Assembly: GCA_034437795.1 (NCBI GenBank) | Contig: DAOTTI010000189.1 | Location: forward strand, 16,479-80,478 | Length of the DNA: 64,000 nucleotides | Source: Chloroflexota bacterium | Lineage (GTDB): Bacteria; Chloroflexota; UBA11872; UBA12225 | Reading direction: 5' to 3' | Shown: positions 32,613-63,776 of the stretch, piece after piece | Numbering within the stretch: position 1 is the stretch's first letter | Layout: each line of letters starts with the position of its first letter | Translations under genes and position numbers: made by a program | The notes under the pieces: model-generated | Told to the model about the DNA's origin: nothing | Database searches by the model: none | Seen by the model: the letters and a program-made list of their open reading frames with translations, nothing else

Positions 32613-32702
32613 GGCGGGATGGATGATGCCAGGCTGCGTCTGGCCGTGGCATTGAGGATGGCGTTGAGGGGAGGCTGGTCGGTTTCGGCAAGGGAGGCCA
32701 TC

Positions 32703-41802: not shown

Positions 41803-42035
41803 CGGTTCGACCGACCGCTCGCGCGGGTTCTTGCAGCGCAGTCCTCACCCTCTTCCCAGAGAGGGGATCCTGCACCCCCGGAGCATCAGCGCCACGGGAA
41901 AGTGGCTTGCCATATCAGGAACCCGGGCTGGTGGAACAGCACACTACTCCCCGCAGCTGAGGTAGGCCGGCGATGGAAGTAAGCAAGGCAATGCCGACAA
42001 TGGAAGCAATGGTCGCGACGCCATCGCAAGGCGTC

Positions 42036-44992: not shown

Positions 44993-46987
44993 CTAGACCA
45001 CGCCCGCGACCACCCGCTCCAGCAGGAAGCGGCGCGTGCCGTCGTCAAGACCATAGTCGCGGTAGTTGACGCGCAGGTTATAGAGCACGTGGCGCTCGCG
45101 CCCGCGCTCGAGCTGTGCCCACAATCGCCCAGCCTCGCCTTCTGGCAATGCGCGCGCCACCGGCCGGATGTTGCAGGACGAGCCGGCGGGAACGAAGCCG
45201 CGTGGCGCGCAGAGGTGCTGGTAGAGGCGCATATATTTACCGGTCAGGCGCCAGGGCAGGTCCGACGGCTTGCTGGCCCAGGCAGCCTGCGGCTCCTCGC
45301 CGGCGATCTGGCCTCCCTGGCCAAGGGTAAAGAAGCGCATACCGGCGGCGGTCACCACCTCCGTGCTGAAGACGATCCGTGGCAGCCGGCGCCGCACGGC
45401 GGCGAAGAAACCGGCCTCGTCCCACCGCCAGAGTAGCGAGGCGTCCACGTGCACCGCGTCGATACCGAACTCCTCGACCGTTGGCGCCAGTTGGGCCAGA
45501 TAGGCGTCGTGCCACTGGGGCGAATCGACGTCCATGCCGACAATCGGCGCCGTCCATGCTCCCGTGAATTGCACCGCGTCTGCCACCGCGTACCAGCCGC
45601 CATGCAGGTCGGGTAGCGTACCCTCCTCGCCGCCGGCGTTCGCGGGGCAGCCGAAGCACTCCACCTGAACGACGTTGACCCCCTGCCGGAACAGGAATGG
45701 AAAGGGGAAGCGGTAGCGGTCGTGGTGGCGGAACCACTGCGGGAGCGTAACCAGCGTTCGGCCGTTGAGCGTCAGGCGGATGATCCCATCCCCCACCCAC
45801 GGCAGCCCGCCAAGCGTGAGCACCGCCTGGCACGTCTGCGGCAGGGGCACCGTCTCGAAGCTCCAGCCACCGGCGGCCGGCCGCACGTTGCGGAGGGGCT
45901 CACGCCCCGTGCGGAAGTCGAGCGGGCGTGCGGGAGCGCCGCCCGGCCAGCCGACGTAGGGGCCGCACAGCCGGTCGCGCGGGTGGTGCGGCTGGGCGCG
46001 CACCGCCAGATGAGCCAGCCGGTCGAAGCCGGGCCGGTACGGATCGGCCCCCCAGGCAAGCGTATGCACCATGGCCCGGTAGCCGCCGTCATGCAGCGCG
46101 TCGATCGCCTCACGGAAGCCCGCCCGGCCGCCCAGTTCCGGCGCCGGCACGTAATCCGGATAGCCGCGGTCGTACGGCGCGCACCAGCCGGGCAGGTAGA
46201 ACAGCGCGCCGGGTGGGACCCCCAGCTCCTTGAGCTCCCGCGCCAAGTCTCGGAGGTGAGTGTACGTGTGCGCCACCTCGCCGTGCGGGCGCCATAGATC
46301 GAAGGTGAAGACGATGGGGATCTCCAGCACCCAGGCCGGCACGTCCCCCGCGGCGACCTGCTCTGCCAGCGAGCGCAGGCCGTAGGTCTGGCGTAGCCAG
46401 GCGTGGTGGCTGGCCACGGCCGCATCCATGGTCGGCCAGTATTGCACCGTCAGCGGATCCTCGGCAGCCCACTCGAAGCAGAGCAGGAAGCCGTCTCCCG
46501 TGCGCCGCACGGCCGCCGACGGCCGGCGGGGCGTGACATGCTCCAGCAGCCCGCCGCCGCCACGATCCGTCCCCACAGCCTCCAGCGGCGCTCGCGCAGC
46601 GATCTCCAGCCAGCCATCCGGGCCCAGATCCACGAGTACGAGTGGATAGGCCAGCCAGAGCAGGCCGAAGAAGTTGAGGCCCGCACGGTAGCTCTCTCCC
46701 GCCGGCATGTCACGGTCGATGCGCGTGCCGGCGTTCCAGGAGCACGGCAGGTGGATCACCGCCCGCTCGGGGAGCGGCACGTCCAGGGTGGCGCGGTCAC
46801 GCCCGCGCGGGTCATCGGGCGGCGCCTCGCGCGGCGGCAGTCGCAGGGTGAGGCCGTGCGCCCCTTCCTGCCATGCCGGCGCCTGCGAGGCGCCGCCCCG
46901 CCGCACCCGTGCCCCACGGACGACCTCCCAGATCGCTGCGGACCATGAGCGAACCCCCCGTCGCTCTCCCTTGCCGGCCTCACTCAC
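44993..46987 (-). CDS. Conserved ~660 aa protein of unknown function, possibly a TIM-barrel glycoside-hydrolase-like fold. Paralog of 61883..63765.
   Basis: Collinear similarity with the 61883 gene along the whole length (GGGG box, VFTFD.W.P.GEVAH.YTHLRDLAR.LK.LGVPPG, YLPGW, HTLAWGADP, FGVDAVHVDA.LWRWDE.GFFAA.RRRLP). 27 nt downstream of the sulfatase gene on the same strand. Confidence 0.7.
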   Translation of the reverse strand: MSEAGKGERRGVRSWSAAIWEVVRGARVRRGGASQAPAWQEGAHGLTLRLPPREAPPDDPRGRDRATLDVPLPERAVIHLPCSWNAGTRIDRDMPAGESYRAGLNFFGLLWLAYPLVLVDLGPDGWLEIAARAPLEAVGTDRGGGGLLEHVTPRRPSAAVRRTGDGFLLCFEWAAEDPLTVQYWPTMDAAVASHHAWLRQTYGLRSLAEQVAAGDVPAWVLEIPIVFTFDLWRPHGEVAHTYTHLRDLARELKELGVPPGALFYLPGWCAPYDRGYPDYVPAPELGGRAGFREAIDALHDGGYRAMVHTLAWGADPYRPGFDRLAHLAVRAQPHHPRDRLCGPYVGWPGGAPARPLDFRTGREPLRNVRPAAGGWSFETVPLPQTCQAVLTLGGLPWVGDGIIRLTLNGRTLVTLPQWFRHHDRYRFPFPFLFRQGVNVVQVECFGCPANAGGEEGTLPDLHGGWYAVADAVQFTGAWTAPIVGMDVDSPQWHDAYLAQLAPTVEEFGIDAVHVDASLLWRWDEAGFFAAVRRRLPRIVFSTEVVTAAGMRFFTLGQGGQIAGEEPQAAWASKPSDLPWRLTGKYMRLYQHLCAPRGFVPAGSSCNIRPVARALPEGEAGRLWAQLERGRERHVLYNLRVNYRDYGLDDGTRRFLLERVVAGVV

Positions 46988-47013
46988 GTCTGGCCTACCT
47001 TCTCACTCCTCGC

Positions 47014-48657
47014 TCACTCGTGGCCCTCGTTCCTCGCCAGTCGCTCCTCGCTCCGCGCTCCTTCTCCTCGCCCCGGCTGCTTGGTCACGAAGGGATGGTT
47101 GGGCGTTTGCAGGTGCTCCCGTAGCCACGGCCGCTTCTCGGCGGGCAGGCCCCCGCGCGGCCCGATCAGGTAGCGGGCGGCCCCCCACATCAGCTGCGTG
47201 TATGGATCATAGTGCTCAAACATTAACGCCCACAGCGCGTCGCGCAGGTCCTGCGCCACCTCGGCGTACGCCGGCTCATCGATCACGTTGCGCACCTCGC
47301 CCGGATCGGCCTCTAGGTCGTACAGTTCATCCCAGTCGAAGCCGTTGAAGACGTACTTGTAGCGCTGGCCAATGGCGATGCGCTGGGTGTAGAGCAGCTC
47401 GCAGCCGTAGTAGCAGTTGAGCCGGTAGGCCGGCCAGTCCGCTTCGGCCGCCTCGGGGCGCATCATCAGGGGCAGCAGGTCGCGACCGTCGGCGTGGGGC
47501 AGCGCCGGCGCCCCCGCCACGGCGGTGAAGGTATGCGCCAGGTCCTGTAGCTGGACCAGCGCGTGCGTTCGGCTCCGCGCCGGGATCACGCCCGGCCAGC
47601 GCGCCACCAGCGGGATGCGGATCGTCTCCTCGTAGGGCGTCCAGCCCTTGACCATACAGCGGTGGGCGCCCACGTTGTCCCCGTGGTCGGCGGTGAAGAC
47701 GGTCAGGGTGTTGTTCACCTGGCCCACCTCCCTGAGCGCATCAAGGACGATCCCCACCGCCGCATCCACCTGCTGGCAGTAGGCGTAGAAGTGGCGCAGC
47801 ACCTCCCGCACGTCTTCGGGCGACAGTTCCTGCCACAGGCTGGCCTCGCGCGCCAGGAGCCGCGGCTTGTTCTGAAAGGTTTCCTCCAGGTAGTTCCTGG
47901 GGATTTCCACATCCTCCGGCCGGTACTGCGCCAGGAACGTCAGCAGGGGCTTATAGGGGTCGTGGGGCTCGGGGAAGTGCACCTCAATGTGCCAGGGGCG
48001 GCCGGACGCGGCGTACTCGCGGATCAGCTGCGCCGCCGTGGTGGCAATGTGGTACTCCTGCGTCGCCTCGAACTCCCCGTCGATCTCCAGCCACAGGGTG
48101 TGCGTGTCGCCCCCGGGCCAGGTGACCGACCGGCGCCGGACCACCTCGTAGCGCCGGCGGGTGTCGCGAATGGTCGGGCCATAGCCGTCCACCCGGTTGC
48201 GCCGCGCCGCCTCCGGGGTGAGCGTAACCTGGACCGGCGCGCGGTACTCGTGGTAGCCGAAGTCCAGCGGGCCCCGCAGGCGGCTGGCGTGCCACTTGCC
48301 CACATAGCCCAGGCGGTACCCCACCTGGCGCAGGCGCTGAGAGAAGGTCTCGACGTCCGGCGCCAGATCGGGATTGAGCGACATCGGTACGTGCACCTGG
48401 TGGTAGACGCCGTTGTGCCAGGGGTAGGCCCCGGTGAGCAGGGCGGCGCGGGCGGGGCAGCAGATCGGCACCGGCGTGGAGGCGCGCTCACAGCAGAGGC
48501 CCTCCGCTACCAGCGCGTGCACGTGAGGCGTGCGGCACACCGACCGACCGGCAATCGTGTCCCAACGCATGTGGTCGCCGGTGATCAGCAGGATGTTCGG
48601 TGGCCCCGGTGGGGCAGGCGGGCCGTTCAGGCCCGACCGGTCAGCGTGGGTAGTCAT
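47014..48657 (-). CDS. Sulfatase (canonical Cys-type; CCPAR FGly motif).
   Basis: NILLITGDHMRWD N-terminus, and PICCPARAALLTG signature. Confidence 0.85.
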   Translation of the reverse strand: MTTHADRSGLNGPPAPPGPPNILLITGDHMRWDTIAGRSVCRTPHVHALVAEGLCCERASTPVPICCPARAALLTGAYPWHNGVYHQVHVPMSLNPDLAPDVETFSQRLRQVGYRLGYVGKWHASRLRGPLDFGYHEYRAPVQVTLTPEAARRNRVDGYGPTIRDTRRRYEVVRRRSVTWPGGDTHTLWLEIDGEFEATQEYHIATTAAQLIREYAASGRPWHIEVHFPEPHDPYKPLLTFLAQYRPEDVEIPRNYLEETFQNKPRLLAREASLWQELSPEDVREVLRHFYAYCQQVDAAVGIVLDALREVGQVNNTLTVFTADHGDNVGAHRCMVKGWTPYEETIRIPLVARWPGVIPARSRTHALVQLQDLAHTFTAVAGAPALPHADGRDLLPLMMRPEAAEADWPAYRLNCYYGCELLYTQRIAIGQRYKYVFNGFDWDELYDLEADPGEVRNVIDEPAYAEVAQDLRDALWALMFEHYDPYTQLMWGAARYLIGPRGGLPAEKRPWLREHLQTPNHPFVTKQPGRGEGARSEERLARNEGHE

Positions 48658-48788
48658 CAGTCTCCTCTCTGCCTGTGCAGCTTGCCGTAGCCACTGGCAT
48701 GGCCAGACGTTTGGTGCCCCTTTCGCCTGCGGGTACCGGCGTCAGATGACGGCTGGCCGCGCACGCTGCTGAGCCCAGCGGCGCGGCG

Positions 48789-49460
48789 CTACGCCCGGCC
48801 ATCAGGCGGGCGTCCGTCGGTCTGACCGTGGCTCTCGACGTCGCCGTCCCAGCCCAGCCACCGGACAAACTCGGTGTGGGGGCGCCTCGGTTTCTCCGGC
48901 AGCGTCGCCTGCGGATCGGGGTACCCCACATAGATGAAGCCGACGAGCTGCGCCTCCGGCGGCAGGCCCAGGAAGCGCTTGGCGTGCTGCGACTCTGTGC
49001 CGTTGGAGCGCCAGTAGGCGGCCAGGCCCATGGCATGGGCGGCGATGAGGATGCTCTGCATCGCGGCCGCGGTAGCCGCCAGATCCTCCCAGGGTGGCAC
49101 GTGCGGGTGAGCCCCCGGGACGGCCGCCACAACGATCACGACGGGCGCCCGCGTGAAGGAGAGCGGGACATGCTTGCGGCGCTGCGCCTCGGCCTCAGGG
49201 GTGGGCGCCGGCCAGCGCCGCAAGCCCTCGTCCATGATCACCTCACCCAGGCGCAGGCGCGCCTCACCCCGCAGGACGAAGAAGCGCCACGGCTGCGTCA
49301 GGTAGTGGTTGGGGGCATGAGTGGCCGCCTCCAGTAGCGTGTCAATCACCGCCCGGGGCGGCTCCCTGTCCGGCAGCACGTGCGGCTGGCTGCGGCGGGT
49401 GCGGATGACGTGCAGGACGGTTTCGGCGACCGTGGCGGGAAGGGCAGGTAGGGTCGTCAT
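48789..49460 (-). CDS. Nitroreductase-family protein.
   Basis: TRRS...P and RSQP-like FMN-binding N-terminus, with a nitroreductase fold. ATG at 49460. Confidence 0.7.
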   Translation of the reverse strand: MTTLPALPATVAETVLHVIRTRRSQPHVLPDREPPRAVIDTLLEAATHAPNHYLTQPWRFFVLRGEARLRLGEVIMDEGLRRWPAPTPEAEAQRRKHVPLSFTRAPVVIVVAAVPGAHPHVPPWEDLAATAAAMQSILIAAHAMGLAAYWRSNGTESQHAKRFLGLPPEAQLVGFIYVGYPDPQATLPEKPRRPHTEFVRWLGWDGDVESHGQTDGRPPDGRA

Positions 49461-49479
49461 AGGCAAGAAGACACGCACG

Positions 49480-49496
49480 GATTGTATACGATCGAC
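49480..49496. promoter_or_regulatory. Palindromic motif copy 2 (gattgtatacgatcgac), ending 20 nt upstream of the nitroreductase start on the minus strand.
   Basis: Direct reading. Confidence 0.45.
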
Positions 49497-49700
49497 GTCT
49501 CGTCGGGCGCCGCACCGGTCGAGCTGCATCCCCTGCTGCCAAGTGCCGGCATGACGCCGCCCAATGGCCCTCCCTCGGCCCCGGCCGCTCCGGCACGGTC
49601 CGCTGCAGCCACTCGCCGCGGCGGACTGCCCACGCGCCCCCACCGCTCGCTGGCCCGCCGCTCCGGTACTACCCGTTGCACTCTTGTGTCGCGGCGGCGC

Positions 49701-49716
49701 ATTGTATACCATCGAC
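49701..49716. promoter_or_regulatory. Palindromic motif copy 3 (attgtataccatcgac), in the nitroreductase / SBP divergent region.
   Basis: Direct reading. Confidence 0.45.
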
Positions 49717-49855
49717 GATGTGGCTGGCCTCGCGCGCCTCCGCACCGGCCGGCATACGGCACATGTGCGATAAGCGCCAGACCGGCGGGCCAGCCGTACC
49801 CTCTACCGCTCTACTGGCAACGATGAAGAGCGATCATGGCAACGGGAGGTACACC

Positions 49856-51208
49856 ATGGGACAGCCAGTCGTACAGCGCACCAGGCGGGCGCTGCTTGGC
49901 GAGGGCGCTCTCCTTCTCGGGGCGGCCCTGGTCGCCTGCGTCCCGGGCCAGGCCGGCCCGGCCAGGAAGGAGCCGGAAGGGGCCGCCACCATCAACATCC
50001 TGTACGGGGGCGGCGGCCAGGAGGTGCAGGATCTCTACGACCGTACCGCCTTCGCCACCTTCAAGCGCCGCTTCCCCGGCTCCACCATCAATCTGGACAG
50101 CAGCGGCAACCCGCTCTCCAAGGTGCTCACCCTGCACGCCGCCGGCAGCGCGCCGGACATCATCCAGGGTGGCGATACCTGGACGATCGACGTGGCGCGC
50201 CTCGGTCTCGGCATCCCCCTCGATCCGTACGTCAAGGGCTGGGATGCGCGCGCCGACTTCGTCAAGTCGTCCTGGGACTCGGGGCAGGAGGCCGGCAAGC
50301 AGTGGGGCGTGCCCCTCTTCGTTACGGCGCGTATCGTCTATCTCCGTAAGGGCGTGCTGGCCGAAGTCGGCGTCGCCAGGACCCCGGAGACCTGGGAGGA
50401 TCTGGTGGATACGGCCAGGCGCTCCACCAAGGTGGACAACGACCGCGTGGTACGTCAGGGGCTCACGCCCCCAGGCGGGGGCGACGCCTGGTGGTGGTGG
50501 TTCTGGCTCCTGCAAACGACCGGCGCCACGCTGTTCAAGGACGGCAAGGCCGGCTTCACCGCGGGAGAAGGGGAGACCACCTTGCAATTCATGAAGGACC
50601 TGCAGTCGGCGATCCTGCCCCGAGGCGCAGAGCCGTTACCCGGCGATAGCGCGGCCAACTTCACCAGCGGTACCATCGCCCACGCCTGGCTACACCTCGC
50701 CCCCTATCAGAACATCCAGAGGTCGAACCCCAAGGATTACCAGGAGATGGTGATCAGCACGCCCCAGGTGCCGGGGAACGTCGCCTACCGGCTGCCGGGC
50801 GGGCGCAAGGTCCCGCCGCTGACCTTCGTGGACAACGCGCTGCTGTTCATTAGCGCCCAGTCCAGGTATCCGGACCACGCCTGGGAATTGACCAAGCTCC
50901 TGCTGGAGCCGGAGACGCTGCTGGAATTCGAGCGCCTGCGCGGGCGCCTGCCGCCCCGCCGGTCCATCTTCGGCCAGGGCTGGATGAAGGATGAGAAGAT
51001 CCAGCAGATCGCCAGGGTCTATGAGAAGACCGGCCGCGCGCGCTTCAACCCGCCCAACTTCGACGGCGTGACCCGTATCGTCAACGAGGTCGTCTGGAGT
51101 GTGGTGCGAGATCAGAAGGTCTCGGTGCGCGACGGGGTGCTGGCCATGGCGCGCGACCTGGAGCAGCTCGCGCGTGAGGTCGCTTATACCGGCACGACCC
51201 GATGGTGA
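49856..51208 (+). CDS. ABC transporter substrate-binding protein (family 1).
   Basis: ATG 49856, preceded by GGGAGG. MalE-like motifs. Confidence 0.85.
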   Translation: MGQPVVQRTRRALLGEGALLLGAALVACVPGQAGPARKEPEGAATINILYGGGGQEVQDLYDRTAFATFKRRFPGSTINLDSSGNPLSKVLTLHAAGSAPDIIQGGDTWTIDVARLGLGIPLDPYVKGWDARADFVKSSWDSGQEAGKQWGVPLFVTARIVYLRKGVLAEVGVARTPETWEDLVDTARRSTKVDNDRVVRQGLTPPGGGDAWWWWFWLLQTTGATLFKDGKAGFTAGEGETTLQFMKDLQSAILPRGAEPLPGDSAANFTSGTIAHAWLHLAPYQNIQRSNPKDYQEMVISTPQVPGNVAYRLPGGRKVPPLTFVDNALLFISAQSRYPDHAWELTKLLLEPETLLEFERLRGRLPPRRSIFGQGWMKDEKIQQIARVYEKTGRARFNPPNFDGVTRIVNEVVWSVVRDQKVSVRDGVLAMARDLEQLAREVAYTGTTRW

Positions 51209-51465
51209 GACGGGGCGACCGGTGCGCCGCCGCGGTGGCCGGCGCGGCTCGCACGGAGCGCTCCGGACACTCCTCCAGCGTGAGGCGCGGCGGCCCATGA
51301 ACCGGCGGGGGATCCCGGCCAGGCACGTCCGCTTTCGTGACGTGGGCGGCCAGAAGTCCTGTATCACCGTTGCTCGCGGTGAGGTGGCAAAGGACTGCGG
51401 GCCGCTGCTGTAGCACCACCCCGCGCGGCAACGTGAAACCGAACACGTCTGAGGGAAGGAGAGCC

Positions 51466-52683
51466 ATGAGCCAGCAGGACGCAGCCATGGCCGTGCCGGC
51501 GGTACCGCTGGTGGCCTTTGATCCCGCCTCGATCCCCGACGTCACCATCCGGCGCATCACGCGCATCCGCCTCACGGCCGTGCGCCCGCGGGAGGTGGGG
51601 CGCGTGCACCGCTCCACCTATAACCCCCAGGTGCGCGTCTGCTGGGAGGAGCCGTTCAACCTGGTAGAGACGGACAGCGGGTTCCACCCCATCGGCTGGT
51701 GCCGCGCGCCGGACGAGCAGATGCGCCGGCTGATCGGCAAGTCGCTGCGCACGCTGTTCGGGCCAGATGGTCTGGTGCGCCCGGCGTACCGCTTCGCTGG
51801 CATGCTGCTCTGGGAGGTGCTGGGCCAGGCCCTGGGACAGCCGGTGTACGTCTTGCTCGGCGCCCGCGGCCCGGCCGACGTGCTGACCTACGACAGCTCC
51901 ATCTACCCGTCGGACATGAACGCCGCCGACCCGGCCGCCGGCGACCGCTACCTGATCGATAGCCTCCGCTCTGGCCTGAGCCAGGGACACAAGCACTTCA
52001 AACTCAAGATCGGGCGCGGGGGCCGCTACCCCGACCTCGTCACTCGTGAAGCCGGCCTGGCGCGGGACATCCATATCACGTGGCACGCCCGCGAGTACCT
52101 TGGCCCCGACAGTGCCATTCTGGTAGACGCCAATAACGAATACACACTGGAGGAAGCCCAGCGCTACCTCACCGAGGTAGCCGGCGCGCGGATCGGCTGG
52201 ATCGAGGAGCCGTTCCCGGAGAGCATGGAGCAGACCGGCGCGCTCAAGCACTTCATTCTGGAGCGCGGGCTGGATGTGGCCATTGCCGACGGCGAAGGAG
52301 GCTGGGCGGAGCGCCCGGCTGAGAGCGCGGCGCTGCTCGAACAGCTCGTCACCGCACGGGTCCTGGACGTGGTGCAGCGTCCCCTGCGCGCCTACGGCTT
52401 CAACGAGTGGCTGGAATTGCTGCCTCTGCTGGCCCGCTCCGGCGCCAGGGCGGCACCGCACAACTGGGGCGGCTACGTCGTGCAGTTCCACGCGGCCCAC
52501 CTGGCGCGGGGCACGGGCCTGTGCACGTACCTGGAAACGGACATCATGGTCAACCCCGACGTCGACGCCACCGGCTTTGTCCGCCGCAACGGTCTCCTGA
52601 GCGTGCCCGACACCCCCGGCTTCGGCTGGCGCATCGACCCGGATCTGTTCAAATGGAAGGAGCCGGTCGGCGTGTGGGACTAG
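51466..52683 (+). CDS. Enolase-superfamily enzyme (MR/MLE family), third copy in the window.
   Basis: ATG 51466 with a GGAAGGAG RBS. Barrel KxK/D/E/D-type residues (KHFKLKIG, DANNEY, EEPFP). Confidence 0.75.
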   Translation: MSQQDAAMAVPAVPLVAFDPASIPDVTIRRITRIRLTAVRPREVGRVHRSTYNPQVRVCWEEPFNLVETDSGFHPIGWCRAPDEQMRRLIGKSLRTLFGPDGLVRPAYRFAGMLLWEVLGQALGQPVYVLLGARGPADVLTYDSSIYPSDMNAADPAAGDRYLIDSLRSGLSQGHKHFKLKIGRGGRYPDLVTREAGLARDIHITWHAREYLGPDSAILVDANNEYTLEEAQRYLTEVAGARIGWIEEPFPESMEQTGALKHFILERGLDVAIADGEGGWAERPAESAALLEQLVTARVLDVVQRPLRAYGFNEWLELLPLLARSGARAAPHNWGGYVVQFHAAHLARGTGLCTYLETDIMVNPDVDATGFVRRNGLLSVPDTPGFGWRIDPDLFKWKEPVGVWD

Positions 52684-52712
52684 CGCGGACTGTTCACAGC
52701 CGGCGAGCGGTT

Positions 52713-52872
52713 CCTTCTCCCTCTGGGAGAGGGGTAGGGTCCAGTGCAGCCGGCTCTGCTGTGCCAGCAGGCTCCCTCTTCCACAGGGAGAGGGGTAGGG
52801 GCCTCAGGGCGGGGCAGACCTGGCGCGGTCCACTTTCTCTCCCAGGGGGGAGAGGGCTCAGGTAAGGGCTCT
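52713..52872. repeat. REP-like hairpin repeat cluster (three units: ccttctccctctgggagaggggtaggg; ctccctcttccacagggagaggggtaggg; ctttctctcccaggggggagagggctcaggtaaggg).
   Basis: Direct reading. Confidence 0.7.
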
Positions 52873-52953
52873 GCTGTAAATAGTCCGGGCCGGATGGGCT
52901 GGTGGCGTGGACGGGCACGGACGGAGGTTGACGGGAGTCAAGGAGAGAGCATC

Positions 52954-54258: not shown

Positions 54259-54459
54259 GCCAGGTTCACAGCGCAACGTTCACGGCGCAACGCAAGGAAG
54301 CCAGCCGGCGCCGGCCCGGCTGCGGAAAGCGATCCGGCCTGCGTCCGCCCCTACTGCACCTGTCGCGCGGTGTCGGCACGCTGCCATCTGCCGGCCCTGA
54401 GGAGCGCCCTTGAGGAGCGCCGTAGCGCCTGAGGACGAGGAATGAACGAGGAGCAACCG

Positions 54460-55398: not shown

Positions 55399-55788
55399 TT
55401 GCATAGGCGCTCGCCATCTCCGTCTCCGGCGCGGCGCCACGCGGCAGCAGCTCGAAGATGTCGAAACCGTGTGCCCCCAGCGACAGCCGCAGCGTCGGGC
55501 CATCAAGCCGTCTCGTCTCGCCGGGGACGTCGCGGATGTCAATGTGCAGCTAGCTGGATGCCGTCATCCTTGAAGCGGTCATCACGCCTCGCCGTCCCTG
55601 CGCCGGCGGACGAGGGCCGGCCGATGGATCTGCTCCAGCCGCCACCGGTCGGATACGCCCTTGGAACTCCCTGCGCCGGTGGACGAGGGCCGGCCGATGG
55701 ATCCCCGCTGCTGGAGCCAGCCGGCTTTCCCATCCTCAGGCGCCGCCGTTGCCGCTGCGCATCGCGGATCCCTTGACACTCATGTGCA

Positions 55789-55805
55789 GATGATATACCG
55801 TAGAC
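55789..55805. promoter_or_regulatory. Palindromic motif copy 4 (gatgatataccgtagac), 70 nt upstream of the SBP gene.
   Basis: Direct reading. Confidence 0.4.
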
Positions 55806-55873
55806 GACAGGCAACGATGCCATGGCGGCCAGGTGGCCGCGTCACCACAGCAAGCGTGAGGAGGGGAAGTGCC

Positions 55874-57241
55874 ATGACCCGTACCCCGACCACCAGGCGC
55901 GCCCTGATCAGCGGCGCCGTACTCCTGAGTAGCGGGCTGGCCGCCGCCTGTGGCCAGTTCGGCCAGCGGGAAGTGACCCCGCCGACCGCCCGGCGGACAC
56001 CTACCCCGCTCCTGGCCTGGGTGGGGCCGCCGGTGGACACGATCGGCCCCGGCGCAGACTTCTGGAAGACCACGGAGGCCCTGCTCAGGACCGAGCACCC
56101 CGAGATCCTGCTGGATCGTAACCGGCCGGCGATCCCCGAAAACCAGACCTTCGACGACATGCTGATCGCCAACTTTGCCGCCGGCAGTGGCCCCGACGTC
56201 TGGGAGGGGGACGTCACGCCCTGGCGCCAGGAAGTGAAGGTCAAGCTGGGCATCCCTCTCGCCCTGGAGAGCTACTACGCGCGCCTGCCTAACCTCAAGA
56301 GGATCTTCGGCTGGATGAAGGAGCAGGCCCGCATCCAGGGCAAGCTCTACGGCGTGCCCCACGAGGTGGAGTTCATTGCCGTCTTCTACAACAAGCGCGT
56401 GTTCGCCGCGGCCAACGTCAAGCCGGGCAGGACCTGGGAGGAGTTCCTCAAGACGGGCGAGACCCTCAAGGCCCAAGGTATCCAACCGCTCAACCAGCGG
56501 GCAGCGCCGAACATGGGGCACCTCTGGAGCCTGACCCTGGCAGCCATCGCCGGCCGGCAAGGGGTCGACGACATTGTGGCTGGCAAGGCGCGGTGGGACG
56601 GCACCGCCCCGGTGCTGGCCGGCGAAACGCTGGTCGATCTGCAACGGCGGGGGATCCTGCCCCGCTATGCAAGCATCGTGGGCAACCAGCCGTTCGCCGA
56701 GTTCCCGATGGGCGATTCGTTCTTCGAGGGCAAGGTCGCCCAGTGGGTTACCGGCACCTGGAGCATCGCCGGTTTCGAGAAGCAGAAAGTGGACAGAGGG
56801 GGGCTCTTCGACTACGATTTTTATGCCTTGCCCTCGCCCAACAATAGCCGCAAGCCCGAACTCGCGGGCAGCGCTGGCGGTGGCTTCTCGATCTGGGCCA
56901 AGAGTAAGGTCCCCGACGTGGCAGCCACGTTCATCGACTGGCTCTACAGCCCGCCGGTGCAGCGGGCCTGGATCGAGATCCTGTTCCAGGTGCCCCCGGT
57001 CCCCTTCAAGATTGAGGACTACAAGCTCTCTGACGGTGAACGGCGGGCGCTGGCACTGATCCACGACTACGAGAAGCTGGGGTTCGGCTGGAACGTGGAC
57101 GTGATCATGCCGGTGGAGATGCACCGCGAGTTCTGGCCCCTGCTGAGCGAGGTAATGCTCGGGAAGAAGACGCCGCGGGAGATGATGACGCGCCTCCAGC
57201 AGCTCTGGGAGACGGAGCAGGCCAAGCTCAAGGCGCGCTAA
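55874..57241 (+). CDS. ABC transporter substrate-binding protein (family 1), lipoprotein signal.
   Basis: ATG 55874 (MTRTPTTRRALISGAVLLSSGLAAAC). Confidence 0.85.
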   Translation: MTRTPTTRRALISGAVLLSSGLAAACGQFGQREVTPPTARRTPTPLLAWVGPPVDTIGPGADFWKTTEALLRTEHPEILLDRNRPAIPENQTFDDMLIANFAAGSGPDVWEGDVTPWRQEVKVKLGIPLALESYYARLPNLKRIFGWMKEQARIQGKLYGVPHEVEFIAVFYNKRVFAAANVKPGRTWEEFLKTGETLKAQGIQPLNQRAAPNMGHLWSLTLAAIAGRQGVDDIVAGKARWDGTAPVLAGETLVDLQRRGILPRYASIVGNQPFAEFPMGDSFFEGKVAQWVTGTWSIAGFEKQKVDRGGLFDYDFYALPSPNNSRKPELAGSAGGGFSIWAKSKVPDVAATFIDWLYSPPVQRAWIEILFQVPPVPFKIEDYKLSDGERRALALIHDYEKLGFGWNVDVIMPVEMHREFWPLLSEVMLGKKTPREMMTRLQQLWETEQAKLKAR

Positions 57242-57681
57242 CCGGGCGGCTGGAGCAGCTCGATCGTGATGCCGTCGGGGTCACGGAGATAGACGGCGTA
57301 GCCGCCTTTGTTCACGCCCTGCGTGATGGCTATCGGCGCGGAGACGAAGCGCACGCCCCGCTGGCGCAGGCGGGCGTGAACGGCCGGCAGGTCGTCGACC
57401 AGAAAGCAGACGTGAGCGCAGCCGGGCCGGTTGGTGGCCAGCGGCAGGGGGTCTCCCGCCTGCGTCTGGTACTGGATCAGCTCCAGGATGTGGCCATTCC
57501 CAGGGAGCGTCAGGAAGACGATACGGAAGCGCTCGCCAGGGAAGCCGGTCACCTGCGCCGGATAGTCCGCCTCCGGCTGCATGTCGGCCAGTACCGTCAG
57601 ACCGAGCAGGTCGCGGTAAAAGGCCAGCGAGCGCTCCATGTCGCCCACGGTGAAGCTGCTGTGGTGGAAGCCTCGCAGCAT
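57238..57681 (-). CDS. VOC (glyoxalase / bleomycin-resistance / dioxygenase) family protein.
   Basis: ATG at 57681 (MLRGFHHSSFTVGDMERSLAFYRDLLG). The upstream low-complexity part of ORF 57238..58101 was rejected. Confidence 0.7.
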   Translation of the reverse strand: MLRGFHHSSFTVGDMERSLAFYRDLLGLTVLADMQPEADYPAQVTGFPGERFRIVFLTLPGNGHILELIQYQTQAGDPLPLATNRPGCAHVCFLVDDLPAVHARLRQRGVRFVSAPIAITQGVNKGGYAVYLRDPDGITIELLQPPG

Positions 57682-57886
57682 GCTCCCGGTGCCCTCCCCC
57701 TCGGGGCGCGTTCGCAGCACGCTGCTGGTGCCCCCTCCCCGCAGGCGACCTCGGGGCACGGCCCCAGTGCGTCCTCGCGGGCGAGTGCGCGGCCTGGTCC
57801 CCGTGCCTCCGTCTCGTAGGTGAGCGCGCGCCACCCCTGTGGCGTCTCCTCCCTGCTGATCCGCGCGCGCCATGGTGCTGGTCCCC

Positions 57887-59956
57887 TTACCCGCTGACAA
57901 GCTGGCGTACGGCCTCGGCGATCTTCTCAGCGCTGACCAGCACCTGCTCCTCCAGGTTTGCAGCGCAGGGGATGGGCACGTCGTCGCAGGTGACGCGCAC
58001 GACCGGCGCGTCGAGATAGTCAAAGGCCTGCTCCAGGATCGTGGCCACCAGCTCCGCGGCAAAGCCACAGGTGCGGTAGCCATCGTTGGCCACCACCGCA
58101 CGATGGGTCTTCTTCACCGAGGCAGTGATGGTGTCCACGTCCAGGGGCACGAGCGTGCGCAGGTCGATCACCTCGGCGTCGATGCCCTCCCCGGCCAGCG
58201 CCGCGGCGGCCTCGACGGCGTAGTGCGCCGCCAGCCCGCTGCCGATGATGGTGACTTGGCTGCCCGGCCGCCGGATGGCTGCCTTGCCCAGGGGGATGAG
58301 GTACTCTCCTTCCGGCACCACGCCGGTGGTGGCATAGAGCAGGCGCTTCTCGAAGCAGAGCACCGGATTGCCGTCGCGGATGGCGCTCTTGATCAGCCCC
58401 TTGGCGTCGTACGGCGTGGACGGCATGATCACCTTCAGCCCCGGGATGTGCGCCACCCAGGCCTCCAGGCTCTGCGAGTGCTGCGCCGCCAGGCCGATGC
58501 CGGTGGGGACCGCGCCCCGCACCAGCATCGGCACCGCCACCTGCCCGCCGGTCATGTAGCGCAGCTTGGCGGCGTGGTTCGCCAGCTGATCCATGGCCAG
58601 GGACAGGAAGTCCATCACCTGGATCTCCACCACCGGCCGCGCGCCAGCGATGGCGGCGCCGACGCCCATCCCCGTGAAGGCCTGCTCGGAGATGGGCGTG
58701 TCGATCACCCGCGCTGGACCGAACGCCTCCAGCAGGCCCTTGGTGCAGCCGAAGAGGCCGCCGGAGGCTGCCACGTCCTCACCCAGGACAAAGACGCGCG
58801 GGTCGCGCCCCATCTCTTCCCAGAGCGCTTCGTTGATGGCCTCAGCCAGGCTCAGCGTCCGCCCTCCCGTCTGGCCTGAACCGGCGGCGGGAACGCCCGG
58901 CTCCACCGCGCGGGCCACCTCGTCGGGCGCCGGCGCGAAGACGTCGGTATGGGCCTCCTCGGGGGCGGGTCGGGGGCTGGCCAGGGCAAAGGCCACGGCC
59001 TCGCGGATCAGCGCCTCCTCCTGGGCGCGGATGGCCTGGATCTGGTCGTCGGAGAGCACGCCGGCGGCCACCAGCCGGCGGCCTAGGACGTCAATCGGAT
59101 CGCGCGCCTTCCAGGCCGCGATCTCCTCCGCCGGCCGCACCTCGCGCGTGGCGAAGGCAGAGTGGCTGTGGAAGCGGTACGTCTTGCATTCCAGGAGCGT
59201 CGGCCCTGCGCCAGCGCGAGCCCGCTCCACGGCGGCACGGGTCGCCTCATAGACCGCCAGGACGTCCTGGCCATCAACGATCGCCCCTGGCAGGCCGAAC
59301 CCTTGCGCGCGGGTGGCCACGTCCGGCACCGAGAGGGTCTGGCTGGCCGGCGTGGTCAGGGCCCACAGGTTGTTCTCGCAGATGAACACCACCGGCAGCT
59401 TGAGCACCGTAGCCAGGTTGAGCGTCTCCAGCAGCACGCCCTGGTTGGCCGCGCCGTCGCCGAAGAAGCAGAGCACGACGCGGTCCTCGCCCAGCAGCCG
59501 CGCGGCGAGGGCCGCCCCGGCCGCGATCGGGGCGTTGGCGCCGACCACGGCGTCCGCGCCGAGCAGGCCGAAGGAGGGGCAGGCGACATGCATCGAGCCG
59601 CCCTTCCCGCGGCAGTAGCCGGTGGCGCGGCCCAGGATCTCGGCCATCATGCGCCTGGGGTCGAGCCCCATGGCCAGGCCGTGCCCGTGCCCGCGATGGG
59701 GGCTGGGGACGTAATCACGGGACGTGATGGCGGCGCAGGCGCCGGCGGCGACCGCCTCCATGCCGATGTAGAGGTGGGCCGTGCCCCGGATCTCGCCCTG
59801 CTTGAACAGGTCCAGTACGCTCTGCTCAAACAGCCGGATGCGCCACAGCAAGGCGTACAGGTGGCGCAGCCGGTCGGGAGCGAGCTCCGCGGGGAGGGAG
59901 GCGGTCGGCGCCGCAGAAGTCACGGCCATGGTCAGCGTTCCTCGTCCCAGGTCCAC
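57887..59956 (-). CDS. Fused 2-oxo-acid dehydrogenase E1 component, alpha plus beta subunits (TPP-dependent, acetoin/pyruvate dehydrogenase E1-like).
   Basis: N-terminal alpha part with the GDGAANQG TPP motif. C-terminal beta / transketolase-like part (DTPISEQAFTGMGVGAA). 689 aa in a single ORF. Confidence 0.8.
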   Translation of the reverse strand: MDLGRGTLTMAVTSAAPTASLPAELAPDRLRHLYALLWRIRLFEQSVLDLFKQGEIRGTAHLYIGMEAVAAGACAAITSRDYVPSPHRGHGHGLAMGLDPRRMMAEILGRATGYCRGKGGSMHVACPSFGLLGADAVVGANAPIAAGAALAARLLGEDRVVLCFFGDGAANQGVLLETLNLATVLKLPVVFICENNLWALTTPASQTLSVPDVATRAQGFGLPGAIVDGQDVLAVYEATRAAVERARAGAGPTLLECKTYRFHSHSAFATREVRPAEEIAAWKARDPIDVLGRRLVAAGVLSDDQIQAIRAQEEALIREAVAFALASPRPAPEEAHTDVFAPAPDEVARAVEPGVPAAGSGQTGGRTLSLAEAINEALWEEMGRDPRVFVLGEDVAASGGLFGCTKGLLEAFGPARVIDTPISEQAFTGMGVGAAIAGARPVVEIQVMDFLSLAMDQLANHAAKLRYMTGGQVAVPMLVRGAVPTGIGLAAQHSQSLEAWVAHIPGLKVIMPSTPYDAKGLIKSAIRDGNPVLCFEKRLLYATTGVVPEGEYLIPLGKAAIRRPGSQVTIIGSGLAAHYAVEAAAALAGEGIDAEVIDLRTLVPLDVDTITASVKKTHRAVVANDGYRTCGFAAELVATILEQAFDYLDAPVVRVTCDDVPIPCAANLEEQVLVSAEKIAEAVRQLVSG

Positions 59957-60699
59957 CAGGCCCCCGGCGGCAGGACGACCGGCTTCACCGTGGCGCGGCC
60001 GTCGGCCTGCATCTGCGCCAGGAGCGACGTAAACTGGCGCACCTCGTCACAGTGCACGTCCAGGAAATGGCAGGGGATGGCCACGTCCAGCCCGAGCCAC
60101 TGGCAGGCCAGGGCCGCTTCGTAGGGGGTCAGTTCACCGGTGACCACCCGCGCGTCGCCGGCGGCGATGACATCGGGCAGCGCCACATGCACCAGGCCGA
60201 TGTTCGGCCGGTAGAGCTCGCCGATCAGGCGTAGGTCGCTGAACAGGGCCGTGTCGCCCAGGTGGTAGATGCGTGTGCGCTCGTCGACGGAGACGATAAA
60301 GCCCATCGGCAAGCCGGTGGCCCAGCGCCCGTCGGGCAGGCGCACGCGAGACGTGTGGCGCGTCTCCACCGGCCGCACCCGCAGGCCGCGGAACTCCACC
60401 ACCATCCCCCAGGCCAGCTGGAGCACCTGCTCGGGCGGGAGGCCGCCCAGGGTCAGCGCCTCCTTCACTTCCGGTCCGCACACCACCGGCGCCCCGTCGC
60501 GGGCGGCGATCGTTGCCGCATCGCCCAGGTGGTCCCACGCCCCGTGGGTGACCAGCACCAGGTCGGCGCGCTCCAGGTCGCGGACCTTCACCGGGCTGGC
60601 CGGGTTCTCGTCGAGAAACGGGTCGATCAGCACACGCAGCCCCTGCGGTGTGACGATCTCGAACGCGGCGGCGCCAAAGAACCTCAGGTGAGTCGCCAT
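59932..60699 (-). CDS. MBL-fold metallo-hydrolase (UlaG / lactonase-like).
   Basis: VTHGAWDHLGD HxHxDH-type motif. 25-nt overlap with the downstream E1 gene. Confidence 0.75.
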   Translation of the reverse strand: MATHLRFFGAAAFEIVTPQGLRVLIDPFLDENPASPVKVRDLERADLVLVTHGAWDHLGDAATIAARDGAPVVCGPEVKEALTLGGLPPEQVLQLAWGMVVEFRGLRVRPVETRHTSRVRLPDGRWATGLPMGFIVSVDERTRIYHLGDTALFSDLRLIGELYRPNIGLVHVALPDVIAAGDARVVTGELTPYEAALACQWLGLDVAIPCHFLDVHCDEVRQFTSLLAQMQADGRATVKPVVLPPGAWWTWDEER

Positions 60700-60790
60700 C
60701 TTGCTCCCTCGCCGTCCTCATCTGGTGCCCGCGTGGTGCAGACCCCGCCATTGCCCTCTCGGGCCAGCCCCTCTCTCACTCCCTCACCGG

Positions 60791-61690
60791 CTACTGCGCC
60801 ACATGCCCGCCATCGACGTTGAGCGTGACCCCGGTGACCATGCTGGCGGCGTCCGAGGCCAGAAAGACGACGGGGCCGACGATCTCGTGCGGCTCACCCA
60901 GCCGGCCCAGCGGGATATTGCGCAGGAAATAGGCGCGGATCTCCGCATGCTGCAGGCTGCGCTCGATCAGGGGTGTCCGGAAGTGGGTGGGGGCGATGGC
61001 GTTCACCAGGATGCCGTGCCTGGCCCACTCAACGGCCAGTGTCCGTGTCAGGGCAACGAGGCCGCCCTTGGCCGCGGCATAGTTGGCGTTGCCGGTAGTG
61101 ACCCCGACCTGCGCCGCGATGGAGGCGATGTTGATGATCCGCCCGCCGCCCTGGCGGATCATGGCCCGCCCCGCCGCCTGCGCGCACAGGAAGGCGCCCT
61201 TGAGATCGACGGCCAGGACCTCGTCCCACTGCGCTTCGGTCATCTCCTCCGCCGGCGCGCGCCGGCCGATACCGGCATTGTTCACCAGGATGTCGATCCG
61301 CCCGAAGGTCTCCACCGCCCGCTGGACCATCGCCGCCACCTGGTCGGCGCGGCTGACGTCGCAGCGGACGGCCAGGGCGCGCCGCCCCACCTGGTGCACG
61401 TAGGCCGCCACCGGCTGCAGGCCGGCCTCATTGATGTCTACCAGCACGACATCGGCGCCAAACGTGGCCAGCCCGCAGGCGATGGCCTCACCCAGGCCGG
61501 ACGCCGCGCCGGTGACGATGGCCACGCGGTCCGTCAGGTCAAACAGGGCGCGCGTAATCCGCCGCGTGTCACAGCGGAGGCCGGTACCGGCCTCCGGCGC
61601 AATGCTGCGGCTGGGCGCCGTCGCCGGGGTCGCCGCCGGTCCAGCCACGGCCGCCGGTGCCGCCGGTGCAGTGTGAGAGTCGGTCGCCAT
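60791..61690 (-). CDS. SDR-family oxidoreductase (KduD / gluconate 5-dehydrogenase-like) with a ~40 aa Ala/Pro-rich N-terminal extension.
   Basis: VAIVTGAASGLG, NNAG, and YAAAKGG motifs. Confidence 0.8.
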   Translation of the reverse strand: MATDSHTAPAAPAAVAGPAATPATAPSRSIAPEAGTGLRCDTRRITRALFDLTDRVAIVTGAASGLGEAIACGLATFGADVVLVDINEAGLQPVAAYVHQVGRRALAVRCDVSRADQVAAMVQRAVETFGRIDILVNNAGIGRRAPAEEMTEAQWDEVLAVDLKGAFLCAQAAGRAMIRQGGGRIINIASIAAQVGVTTGNANYAAAKGGLVALTRTLAVEWARHGILVNAIAPTHFRTPLIERSLQHAEIRAYFLRNIPLGRLGEPHEIVGPVVFLASDAASMVTGVTLNVDGGHVAQ

Positions 61691-61706
61691 CAGGCCCTTG
61701 TCCTCT

Positions 61707-61723
61707 GATTGTATACCATCGAC
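61707..61723. promoter_or_regulatory. Palindromic motif copy 5 (gattgtataccatcgac), ending 17 nt upstream of the SDR start codon on the minus strand.
   Basis: Direct reading. On the coding strand the context is GTCGATGGTATACAATCAGAGGACAAGGGCCTG-ATG. Confidence 0.45.
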
Positions 61724-61882
61724 CGCTTACATTCCACCCCTCGCGGCCTCTGCCGGAGCCAGGCTGGAACCCGCAGGCTTCCTCCCTTTGAACCTTGAAC
61801 TTCAAGCGGCGCAGGCGCTGCAGTTCGCCCGCCTCTATGCGCTTCCAATAGGCGCTGCTGATGCGCGGATCTCTTGCTGCCC

Positions 61883-63765
61883 TCAGCTCACCACCTGCTC
61901 CAGTAGAAAGTCGCGCGTGCCGGGATCAAGGCCGTAATCACGGTAATTGACACGGAGATTACGCAGGACGTGGTGCCGGCGTGACCAGGCCAGCCGGCGC
62001 CGCGTGGCCTCCACTTCCTCCGTCGAGAGCCTGCTGGGAACAGGATCGATGTTGCAGACTGAGCCGACCGGGACGAAGCCTCGCGGCGCGCACAGGTGCT
62101 GGTAGAAATGCTGGTACTGACCTGTGATCTGCCACGGGAGGTCGGAAGGTTCAGGCTGCCACGCCTCGTCCTCCAGCGGCGGACGTGTCTGGCTAAGCAA
62201 GAAGAAAGCTAGCCCCGCGGTGGTGGCCACCTCCGTACCGAAGACGGTCGGCGGCGGTAGCCGTCGGCGGAGCGCGGCAAAGAAACCGTCCTCGTCCCAG
62301 CGCCAGAGCGCAGTTGCGTCGACGTGCACGGCATCGACGCCGAATTCCTGTACCGTGGGGATGAGGTGCTCCATGAAGGCCGCGCGCCAGAGGGGAGCAT
62401 CGGGGTCCATGCCCACGGCAGGCACCGTCCACGTCGGCCCAGGATGGTCGTACGCCTGGTGGATACGGAACCAGGCGCCGCGCAGGTCCGGCGGTGGGCC
62501 GCCCGCGCCGCCGGCGTTCCGCGGCCAGCCGAAGCAGGCCAGCTCCACTGTGTTCACACCCTGCAGGAAGACGAAGGTGAACGGGAAGGTATAGGCGTGG
62601 TGGCGCAGAAACCAGCCCGCCGGGCCGGTGAAGGTGCGGCCGTTGATCGTCACCTGCACCGTGCCGTGCCCGGCGTCGCCCAACCCGCCGAGGGTGAAGA
62701 CGGCCTCACAGCGCTGGGGCAGCGGCGCCGTGTCGAACGCCCAGCCCCGTGGTGTAGGGCGCACGGCGCTGGCCGGCACGCGCCCGCTGTCGTACTCCAG
62801 GGCCGTGCGCGGGCCGCCGCCGGGCCAGCCGACGTAGGGGCCGCGCAGGGGATCGTCCGGCGGCGCCGCGGGGATCGACTGGCCCGGCGGCGGGCTCTGC
62901 GCCTGGTGGGGATGCACGATCGGTGGCGGCGCGGTGCTGGGGTCGGTCCCCAGCCAGTTGCGCACGGCGGCCGGCGCCAGCCGCTCGAAGTCCGGGCGGG
63001 AGGGATCGGCGCCCCAGGCCAGCGTATGGATCATGATGCGATAGCCGCCTTCGTGGACCGCGGCCACCGCCTCCCGGAAGGCCGCACGCCCACCCAGCTC
63101 CGGCGCCGTCCGGTAGTACGGGTAGCCACCGTCGTAGGGGCCCGACCACCCGGGAAGGTAGAACACCACGCCGGGCGGGACGCCGAGCGCCTTGAGGTCG
63201 CGCGCGAGGTCGCGCAGGTGAGTGTAGGCGTGCGCCACCTCACCGTTGGGCCACCACATGTCGAACGTAAAGACTACCGGTATCCGTGCCGCCCACGCCG
63301 GCACTTCGCCAGTGGCGATGCGCTCGGCCAGCGGCCGGACACCGTACGCCTGGCGCAACCAGGCGACGTGGTCGGCGACCACCGTCTCCGCGGACCTGAC
63401 GGCGCGGCTGGCTGGCCGCTCATCCGTCCCTGATTCGAACGTCAGGCGAAAGCCGTCGCGGGTGCGCTCGACGCTCGCCACTGCCCACCGGCGCCGTACG
63501 GTAGTCGGGAACCCACCACCACCTTTGTCTGTCCCGCTCAGCTCATGCGTGGACCGGGCAGCGACTTCCAGGCAGTCGTCCTGCCCGTCCGCGTGCTCAA
63601 CCAGCACGAAGGGGAAGGTGAGCGGCGCCGGACGGCCATCCGGTCCAGGGCGCGGATAACGCGCGCCGACCGGCATCGAGCGATCCAGCACGACGCCATA
63701 CGTCCAGTGCACCGGCAGGTGGATGCGGGCGCGGTCCGGCAAGGAAAGCTGGACGGCAGACTGCA
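61883..63765 (-). CDS. Conserved ~630 aa protein of unknown function (paralog of 44993..46987).
   Basis: Collinear motifs with 44993..46987. ATG at 63765 (MQSAVQLSLPD), 11 nt after the stop of the upstream SBP gene. Confidence 0.7.
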
Positions 63766-63776
63766 TCGGACCACTC

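Follow-up and report, generated by a model that had tools for sequence, protein, structure and literature searches.

Two paralogous genes, A and B, in a 64,000-nt stretch of contig DAOTTI010000189.1 from a Chloroflexota bacterium encode a very rare branch of alpha-amylase/alpha-galactosidase-type sugar-cleaving enzymes, which profile comparisons place in the uncharacterised Pfam superfamily DUF6259. We lean, with some reserve, towards the reading that both proteins are cytoplasmic retaining alpha-glycosidases that act together with sulfatases on imported sulfated oligosaccharides. Sulfatases and glycosidases have to act jointly to degrade sulfated glycans, and in such pathways the glycosidase family is repeatedly the missing part. 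A and B offer a concrete candidate for a new family: catalytic residues can be predicted, a binding protein is dedicated to the system and sulfatases are co-transcribed. A single characterised member would give DUF6259 its first function. Sulfated-glycan use in uncultured high-GC bacteria of this kind has been little studied; we consider the case to be of moderate interest for carbohydrate enzymologists and not a categorical novelty. The whole stretch (hereafter the window) has a G+C content of about 70%, and coordinates are window positions unless a locus label (L001, L008 etc.) or a P-number stands with them.

Paralogy and family placement

The two genes are:

44993-46987, reverse strand: paralog A, 664 aa from a GTG start, DUF6259-superfamily glycosidase-like protein without a signal peptide
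61883-63766, reverse strand: paralog B, 627 aa from an ATG start, without a signal peptide

For A, the Joint Genome Institute (JGI) gene call uses an alternative start at 46906 and yields 637 aa; the frame of B extends further as a longer open reading frame (ORF) to 63856. An initial annotation of the window had given the same limits for A, but had set the end of B one base short, at 63765. The GC content of the third codon position is 0.86 in A and 0.82 in B, which indicates that these frames, and not the antisense ORFs, are coding. BLASTP aligns both proteins collinearly with 339 identities over 633 positions (54%; 613 bits, E = 0), and the only break in collinearity is a Pro-rich segment of about 40 aa present in B only. 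This similarity is far above chance, and A and B are true paralogs, as had been proposed; the motifs quoted at that time (GGGG, VFTFD, GEVAH, HTLAWGADP, (F)G(I/V)DAVHVDA..LWRWDE and LRVNYRDYGLD) all occur in both sequences. A search of the window with a hidden Markov model (HMM) of the family detected no third paralog.

The two proteins had been described as impossible to place in a known family by sequence alone, and this statement has to be revised. The Pfam model DUF6259 (PF19773; 300 positions; gathering cut-off 28.7 bits) scores A at 34.3 bits, above the cut-off, and B at 26.1 bits, just below it, matching model positions 19-124 and 34-146, respectively, and thus not contiguously over the whole domain. 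In a family alignment of 37 sequences, whose wider relatives share 27-38% identity, 31 members match DUF6259. When this alignment was compared by hhalign to 30 typical DUF6259 proteins, both aligned over their whole length apart from one insert (probability 100%, E = 2.5e-72), the block without a DUF6259 counterpart spanning about residues 342-445 of P0001. Correspondingly, a custom HMM built from DUF6259 proteins recovered A at E = 4e-63 and B at E = 3e-59, each as two segments flanking the insert block. Since both the hhalign and the custom HMM matches flank the unmatched block, A and B are, by profile comparison, a branch of the DUF6259 superfamily with an insert of 140-165 aa.

The branch and DUF6259 proper are homologous over their full length and have in common the motif PGW..YD..YP.Y.P..LGG, a D-A-x-x-x-D motif at beta4 and a G-E pair at beta5. 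In contrast to DUF6259 proper, A and B add the 140-165 aa beta-rich insert between beta3 and alpha3, a C-terminal LRVNYRDYGLD strand specific to the A/B clade and, in the close clade, a GGGG loop. No other Pfam model matched A or B at E <= 1, NCBIfam held no family for either, and phmmer against PDB sequences gave no match. None of these searches returned a housekeeping family unrelated to glycans, the outcome that the initial annotation had named as contrary to its proposal.

The clade is very rare. A word-indexed search of 5.8 billion proteins found nine close homologs with 43-100% identity, all annotated as hypothetical. Three types can be told apart: A and P0002 make up the A-type, B and P0004-P0007 the B-type, and P0008 and P0009 the third. 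A scan of 185,579 species genomes recovered a single carrier, a Chloroflexi genome from groundwater (contig JACQGX010000397); the host bacteria are uncultured and of high GC content. When 1.84 billion cluster representatives were searched exhaustively with a profile, 338 matched at E <= 1e-3, 61 of them at E <= 1e-30. The full-length relatives at 27-38% identity possess the insert and the C-terminal motif, but neither the GGGG loop nor the Pro-rich segment.

Fold and predicted active site

AlphaFold models of A (predicted local distance difference test, pLDDT, 74.9; predicted template modelling score, pTM, 0.74) and B (pLDDT 82.0; pTM 0.84) both consist of an N-terminal beta-sandwich and an eight-stranded beta/alpha barrel with a beta-rich insert between beta3 and alpha3. 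The chain stops after beta8/alpha8, and no C-terminal domain is present in either model. The regions map as follows (GH, glycoside hydrolase):

46436-46795, reverse strand: A, N-terminal beta-sandwich domain, assigned from the secondary structure of the model, with a GTDRGGGG loop at 46550-46561
45992-46429, reverse strand: A, barrel strands beta1-beta3, with motifs FTFD, LPGW..YD..YP.Y.P..ELGG and HTLAWGADP
45575-45994, reverse strand: A, beta-rich insert (about 140 aa) that separates beta3 from alpha3, topologically where GH13 enzymes have domain B; DUF6259 proper lacks it
44996-45574, reverse strand: A, barrel strands beta4-beta8, with motifs GIDAVHVDA, STEV, YQHLC and LRVNYRDYGLD
62453-62944, reverse strand: B, insert (about 165 aa) that separates beta3 from alpha3, with a Pro-rich loop modelled at low confidence (residues 275-330) and, after it, a beta-sandwich

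When both models were compared by Foldseek to the PDB, GH129 enzymes ranked first with a probability of 1.00: the alpha-N-acetylgalactosaminidase NagBb (5WZN) at E = 1.7e-12 and 4.1e-11, and the GH129-like 3,6-anhydro-D-galactosidase DagB (5OPQ/8RZK) at about 1e-10. GH36, GH101 and GH31, the latter including sulfoquinovosidases, followed. Thus, two independent models best match structures of GH129, GH36, GH101 and GH31, and sequence profiles connect the family with GH13 and GH129, in agreement with the glycoside-hydrolase-like (beta/alpha)8 barrel predicted earlier.

GH129 offers the best fold match for both models, with a beta-sandwich and a (beta/alpha)8 barrel and with the motif GW..YD.G.P.Y.P..GG found in the A/B family as well. 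The 37-sequence profile reaches NagBb at E = 8e-4 through a 54-residue motif, YLPGW..YD.GYP.Y.P..ELGG..F...V.A.H..G. However, overall identity is about 10%, the significant sequence match is limited to this short NagBb motif, and A and B do not match the GH129-related Pfam model DUF5696. GH129 enzymes are built from an N-terminal beta-sandwich, a triosephosphate isomerase (TIM) barrel and a C-terminal immunoglobulin (Ig)-like domain (PMC5698469); A and B lack the Ig-like domain, carry the large additional beta3-alpha3 insert and are predicted to be cytoplasmic. A search for GH129 sequences with a 55-aa NagBb fragment yielded two short fragments only.

The relation to GH13 emerged from the DUF6259 profile, which matches the neopullulanase 1J0H from beta3 to beta5 at E = 1e-7. 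The nucleophile and acid/base columns of GH13 fall on the family Asp (beta4) and Glu (beta5), and the insert sits at the position of GH13 domain B. Unlike GH13 enzymes, neither A, B nor the family matches the Alpha-amylase Pfam model, the N-terminal domain and the C-terminal motifs are different, and the gene context is not one of glycogen or starch metabolism. The closest sequence-detectable relatives of DUF6259 include, besides this neopullulanase, a trehalohydrolase and GH66 cycloisomaltooligosaccharide glucanotransferases, and the beta4 motif D..P.W...F...V..VV.EFGIDAVH.DA resembles those of Cwp19/GHL10, GH66 and GH13.

For GH101 (EngBF, SpGH101), the fold match has an E of about 1e-7 and weak profile matches cover the beta2-beta3 motif (E 0.016-0.08), but only the first half of the barrel aligns, over roughly 300 columns; GH101 enzymes are very large, secreted, multidomain proteins. 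Members of clan GH-D (GH36/GH27 alpha-galactosidases; GH31 including sulfoquinovosidases) share the beta-sandwich and barrel, as well as a G-I-D-x-x-K-x-D-like sequence at beta4 that includes the Asp nucleophile. Their acid/base is an Asp after beta6, whereas beta6 of the A/B family ends in a conserved Gln (33/37) and the carboxylate is a Glu after beta5; A and B also lack the C-terminal beta-domain of the clan. The GH31 Pfam model is touched by one of the 37 family members (E = 0.009). Judged by defining features, A and B belong to neither GH129, GH13 nor clan GH-D. The family is a distant relative of GH13, GH129 and GH101. Its members probably work like GH129, GH13 and GH-D enzymes, and we regard it as a candidate for a new family of glycoside hydrolases, marked by an unusual domain-B-like insert.

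The predicted catalytic residues are:

45443-45445, reverse strand: A, Asp515 at the end of beta4, predicted nucleophile, aligned via DUF6259 to neopullulanase D328
45359-45361, reverse strand: A, Glu543 after beta5, predicted general acid/base, aligned to neopullulanase E357
62318-62320, reverse strand: B, Asp483, predicted nucleophile by the same alignment route
62231-62233, reverse strand: B, Glu512, predicted acid/base by the same alignment route

D328 and E357 of 1J0H, the established nucleophile and acid/base of this GH13 neopullulanase, align with the invariant Asp and Glu of DUF6259 when counted along the profile alignment, and the entry of the E357Q mutant, 1J0J, shows Q at the Glu column. 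The Asp is conserved in 35 and the Glu in 36 of the 37 family members. The spacing from Asp to Glu is 28-29 residues in A and B and 31 in DagB (D486/E517), which makes the two pairs comparable in spacing. D486 and E517 are essential in DagB, and D486 corresponds to NagBb D435 (PMC5698469). Further near-invariant residues (D203, W241, H281, D288, Q530, H564, R612 and N614; P0001 numbering) lie at the C-terminal strand ends, which fits a barrel active site. Three Arg residues, R612 and R616 in the LRVNYRD motif of beta8 and R383 in the insert, are kept in the A/B family and also in the relatives with 27-38% identity, whereas DUF6259 proper does not conserve them. Judged from sequence, the Asp/Glu pair would be catalytic and support a retaining double displacement.

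Genomic context and proposed function

The genes next to A and B that bear on their function are:

47014-48657, reverse strand: Cys-type S1 sulfatase without a signal peptide, CCPAR motif at 48448-48462 (residues 66-70), 26 nt upstream of A
48789-49745, reverse strand: nitroreductase-family gene heading the sulfatase-A gene string
63778-64000, reverse strand: 3' end of a solute-binding protein (SBP) gene upstream of B, cut by the window edge
186-1685 (reverse), about 32790-34112 (forward), 38296-39699 (forward), 41973-43394 (forward), 49676-51208 (forward), 55661-57241 (forward) and 63778-64000 (reverse): the seven SBP_bac_1 genes of the window

The sulfatase at 47014-48657 matches PF00884 (E = 8e-37) and SGSH_C and contains the C-x-P-x-R maturation motif. 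A Cys-type sulfatase upstream of A had been annotated correctly, except that the gap to the GTG start of A is 26 and not 27 nt; the binding-protein gene does end 11 nt before the ATG of B, as stated. Every binding-protein gene of the window has an enzyme gene as its partner. P0002, the ortholog of A, is likewise preceded by a nitroreductase fragment.

No hydrophobic leader was found in A, B or either sulfatase of the window, while all six binding proteins with their N-terminal end encoded in the window carry a twin-arginine motif followed by a lipobox Cys. This leader pattern suggests that capture is extracellular and that desulfation and cleavage would be cytoplasmic. A gene for a formylglycine-generating enzyme (FGE) or a radical-SAM (S-adenosylmethionine) maturase was not among the window ORFs scanned, though the sulfatases are of the Cys type and predicted to be cytoplasmic, and a regex search for FGE genes among the neighbours of relatives gave nothing usable.

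In the close clade, these neighbours recur in other genomes. The binding proteins encoded directly upstream of B, P0004, P0005 and P0006 and divergently from P0008 share 50-70% mutual identity, compared to 24-30% with the other binding proteins of the window. A sulfatase gene lies within two genes of A, P0004, P0006 and P0008; the one linked to P0004 is 81% identical to that of A. At a distance of 5.5 kb upstream of B lies another sulfatase, which shares 69% identity with the one convergent with P0006. The groundwater Chloroflexi contig (19.3 kb) has the gene order sulfatase, sulfatase, GH29, E1 alpha, E1 beta, rhaM, unknown, binding protein, homolog, sulfatase, esterase, binding protein, homolog, sulfatase, short-chain dehydrogenase/reductase (SDR), and its SDR and E1 are 74% and 52% identical to those of the window (L032:18907-19315 and L032:4326-6448). 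On the Chloroflexi contig, the 173-aa gene L001:1613-2134 (reverse strand) has no Pfam match; 63 aa of its product are 79% identical to the C-terminal tail of the sulfatase at 47014-48657, and it may be what is left of a sulfatase gene or a tail module that both have in common.

Further out, P0161 (35% identity) neighbours GH95, GH36 and GH39 genes, an arylsulfotransferase, a GFO-family gene, a xylose-isomerase-like barrel (60% identical to that of the window) and a sulfatase. Twenty more metagenome loci of the wider family contributed GH116 (twice), GH42 (twice), GH4, AXE1, URO-D, ATP-binding cassette (ABC) permeases, one FGE domain and another arylsulfotransferase. An arylsulfotransferase gene (PF05935) directly follows a member with about 35% identity in two metagenome loci that are independent of each other (L008:9026-10264 and L013:11739-12977). 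A carbohydrate context is general to the family; a strong association with sulfatases is seen in the close clade, and a patchy one outside it. The proposed partnership with sulfatases and binding proteins therefore recurs across genomes of the close clade, but does not extend throughout the wider family.

The fold matches, the profile links and the recurring sulfatase and binding-protein neighbours support the earlier suggestion that A and B are candidate new glycan-processing enzymes acting with the sulfatase. In the pathway that we envisage, exported lipoprotein binding proteins would capture an oligosaccharide outside the cell, and the captured oligosaccharide would be imported. In the cytoplasm, Cys-type sulfatases would strip sulfate esters and A and B would cut alpha-glycosidic bonds, in either order. 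Cleavage would proceed by double displacement, with the Asp at the end of beta4 (D515/D483) as putative nucleophile and the Glu after beta5 (E543/E512) as putative acid/base. The released sugar might then be oxidised by the neighbouring dehydrogenase, lactonase, dehydratase and thiamine pyrophosphate (TPP) enzymes. DagB may serve as a precedent: this GH129-like enzyme acts in carrageenan breakdown only after sulfatases (PMC5698469), and thus works beside sulfatases on a sulfated glycan, as proposed for A and B. The analysis shows the paralogy, the fold, the placement in a family, a conserved Asp/Glu pair, the lack of signal peptides and the gene neighbourhoods; hydrolytic activity, alpha-retaining chemistry, a sulfated substrate and the order of the pathway are to be read as predictions.

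Several observations weigh against this reading. TM-scores to GH129 are just 0.42-0.47, and beta7 of the family reads YxHLC, with a conserved His but without the transition-state Asp of GH13 region IV, the third carboxylate. The sulfatases are far from any characterised enzyme (E 1e-40 to 1e-47), and the window contains neither an ABC permease nor another transporter, no ORF having more than three predicted membrane segments. A literature search for DUF6259 and PF19773 retrieved no mention of either. Finally, a sulfatase adjoins a wider-family member in one of the 20 loci; given these mixed neighbours, the sulfatase link may be clade-specific or partly inherited synteny among few related genomes.

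As to the substrate, the neighbouring GH29, GH95 and rhaM genes hint at sulfated glycans that contain fucose or rhamnose. Fucoidan-like glycans were not adopted, their support being limited to these same neighbours. The best PDB relative of the sulfatase at 47014-48657 is an exo-2S-iota-carrageenan sulfatase (E = 6e-45), and the other sulfatases match promiscuous arylsulfatases, an ulvan rhamnose sulfatase and an S1_30 enzyme. Solved structures do not reveal the specificity of the sulfatases, since the top matches are too remote and of too many kinds (carrageenan, choline, mucin and ulvan sulfatases, phosphonate monoester hydrolases). A carrageenan-type 3,6-anhydrogalactose substrate was likewise set aside, as the likeness to DagB and to the exo-2S sulfatase is distant and the sole sample of stated origin is groundwater. 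Sulfoquinovose was dropped because sulfatases do not act on sulfonates.

A more far-reaching proposal, which we put forward tentatively, is that the A/B clade and the relatives at 27-38% identity form a new GH family of cytoplasmic sulfo-alpha-glycosidases. Here, the Arg-rich beta8 and the domain-B-like insert would bind sulfate, and the enzymes would belong to an undescribed pathway (dedicated binding protein, sulfatases, SDR-lactonase-TPP-E1) for sulfated fucose-, rhamnose- or galactose-rich glycans in non-marine Chloroflexota-like bacteria.

The same Arg residues could bear on the order of the two reactions. With fold and active site as proposed, A and B could release a still-sulfated alpha-linked sugar that an exo-sulfatase desulfates afterwards. 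Sulfoquinovosidases and 6-sulfo-N-acetylglucosaminidases (6-sulfo-GlcNAcases) bind the anionic group directly, and R612, R616 and R383, with their restriction to the A/B family and its relatives, could bind such an anion. The co-transcription of a sulfatase with A across a 26-nt gap, the arylsulfotransferase genes directly downstream of two relatives at about 35% identity and the GH31 sulfoquinovosidases among the fold matches all agree with this order. However, the Arg residues would have to line the pocket, GH129 and GH36 are ranked above the sulfoquinovosidases, whose matches reflect a shared fold only, and DagB, the nearest solved relative, shows the opposite order with desulfation first. 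We therefore consider glycosidic release of a sulfated sugar rather unlikely.

The retaining mechanism predicted for A and B also permits transfer reactions, and the DUF6259 relatives (GH13 neopullulanase, trehalohydrolase, GH66 glucanotransferases) belong to families rich in transglycosylation. Both proteins might accordingly be transglycosylases, glycoside phosphorylases or glycan-remodelling enzymes, comparable to members of GH13, GH66 and GH70. This non-hydrolytic role appears distinctly unlikely, as the neighbours serve catabolism and uptake (binding proteins, sulfatases, GH29, GH36, dehydrogenases, dehydratases) and no glycosyltransferase or polymer-export genes are nearby.

Chance adjacency is plausible in a window with seven binding proteins and many sugar enzymes. 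A and B could thus be ordinary alpha-glucan or alpha-galactoside enzymes without a tie to sulfatases in a region merely crowded with sugar-utilisation genes; the wider-family neighbours, mostly not sulfatases, and the GH36 genes co-occurring in two loci fit such a role. Yet A starts 26 nt past the sulfatase stop, the same sulfatase and binding-protein orthologs lie beside homologs on separate contigs and in a different Chloroflexi genome, and the GH13, GH36 and GH31 Pfam models remain unmatched by A and B at E <= 1, which leaves this explanation improbable.

Very improbable are a cell-wall or peptidoglycan enzyme like Cwp19/GHL10, although Cwp19 is among the best beta4-motif matches (E = 0.007 and 1e-6) and three family members touch Pfam GHL10, and a catalytically dead sugar-binding protein: without a signal peptide the wall would not be reached, 37 diverse sequences conserve the Asp/Glu pair together with eight other residues at the barrel end, which argues against a dead enzyme, and the context is one of sugar catabolism.

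Further genes in the window

Downstream of B, the window contains the following genes on the same strand (MBL, metallo-beta-lactamase; VOC, vicinal oxygen chelate):

60791-61690, reverse strand: SDR
59932-60699, reverse strand: MBL hydrolase
57887-59929, reverse strand: fused TPP-dependent E1 alpha/beta
57238-57681, reverse strand: VOC

Their order after B is as had been described. The operon (57238-61690) is without an E2 or E3 partner and may represent an undescribed sugar-oxidation and cleavage route.

Two ADP-ribosylglycohydrolase (ARH)-family genes are present:

43665-44705, forward strand: ARH-family gene convergent with A
35648-37090, reverse strand: second ARH-family gene, among binding-protein and sulfatase genes

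Members of this family also lie directly downstream of homologs elsewhere, 3 nt after P0007 (L011:2255-2821) and with a 0-nt gap at L020:11753-13432. This recurrence beside A/B homologs in two other loci hints at a glycan-related role of ARH-like proteins.

The window further holds enolase-superfamily, GFO/IDH/MocA and SDR paralogs and an SMP-30 lactonase (12906-14135, 51337-52683, 7090-8271, 52744-54258, 17542-18321 and 6209-7069 on the forward strand; 3186-3989 on the reverse strand). For cultured SAR202 Chloroflexota, non-phosphorylative sugar routes, with fucose and rhamnose catabolism proposed, and many sulfatase paralogs have been described (PMC10444878). The enolase-superfamily, SDR, GFO and lactonase genes of the window represent the same enzyme set, which we regard as a lead only. 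An 820-aa ORF at 30297-32759 (reverse strand), divergent from a binding-protein gene, has a coding-like third-position GC content of 0.85 and no Pfam match. Between the fatty-acid and miscellaneous genes and the sugar-utilisation half of the window lies a DDE-superfamily transposase-like ORF (27491-28303, forward strand; PF13546, E = 5e-7).

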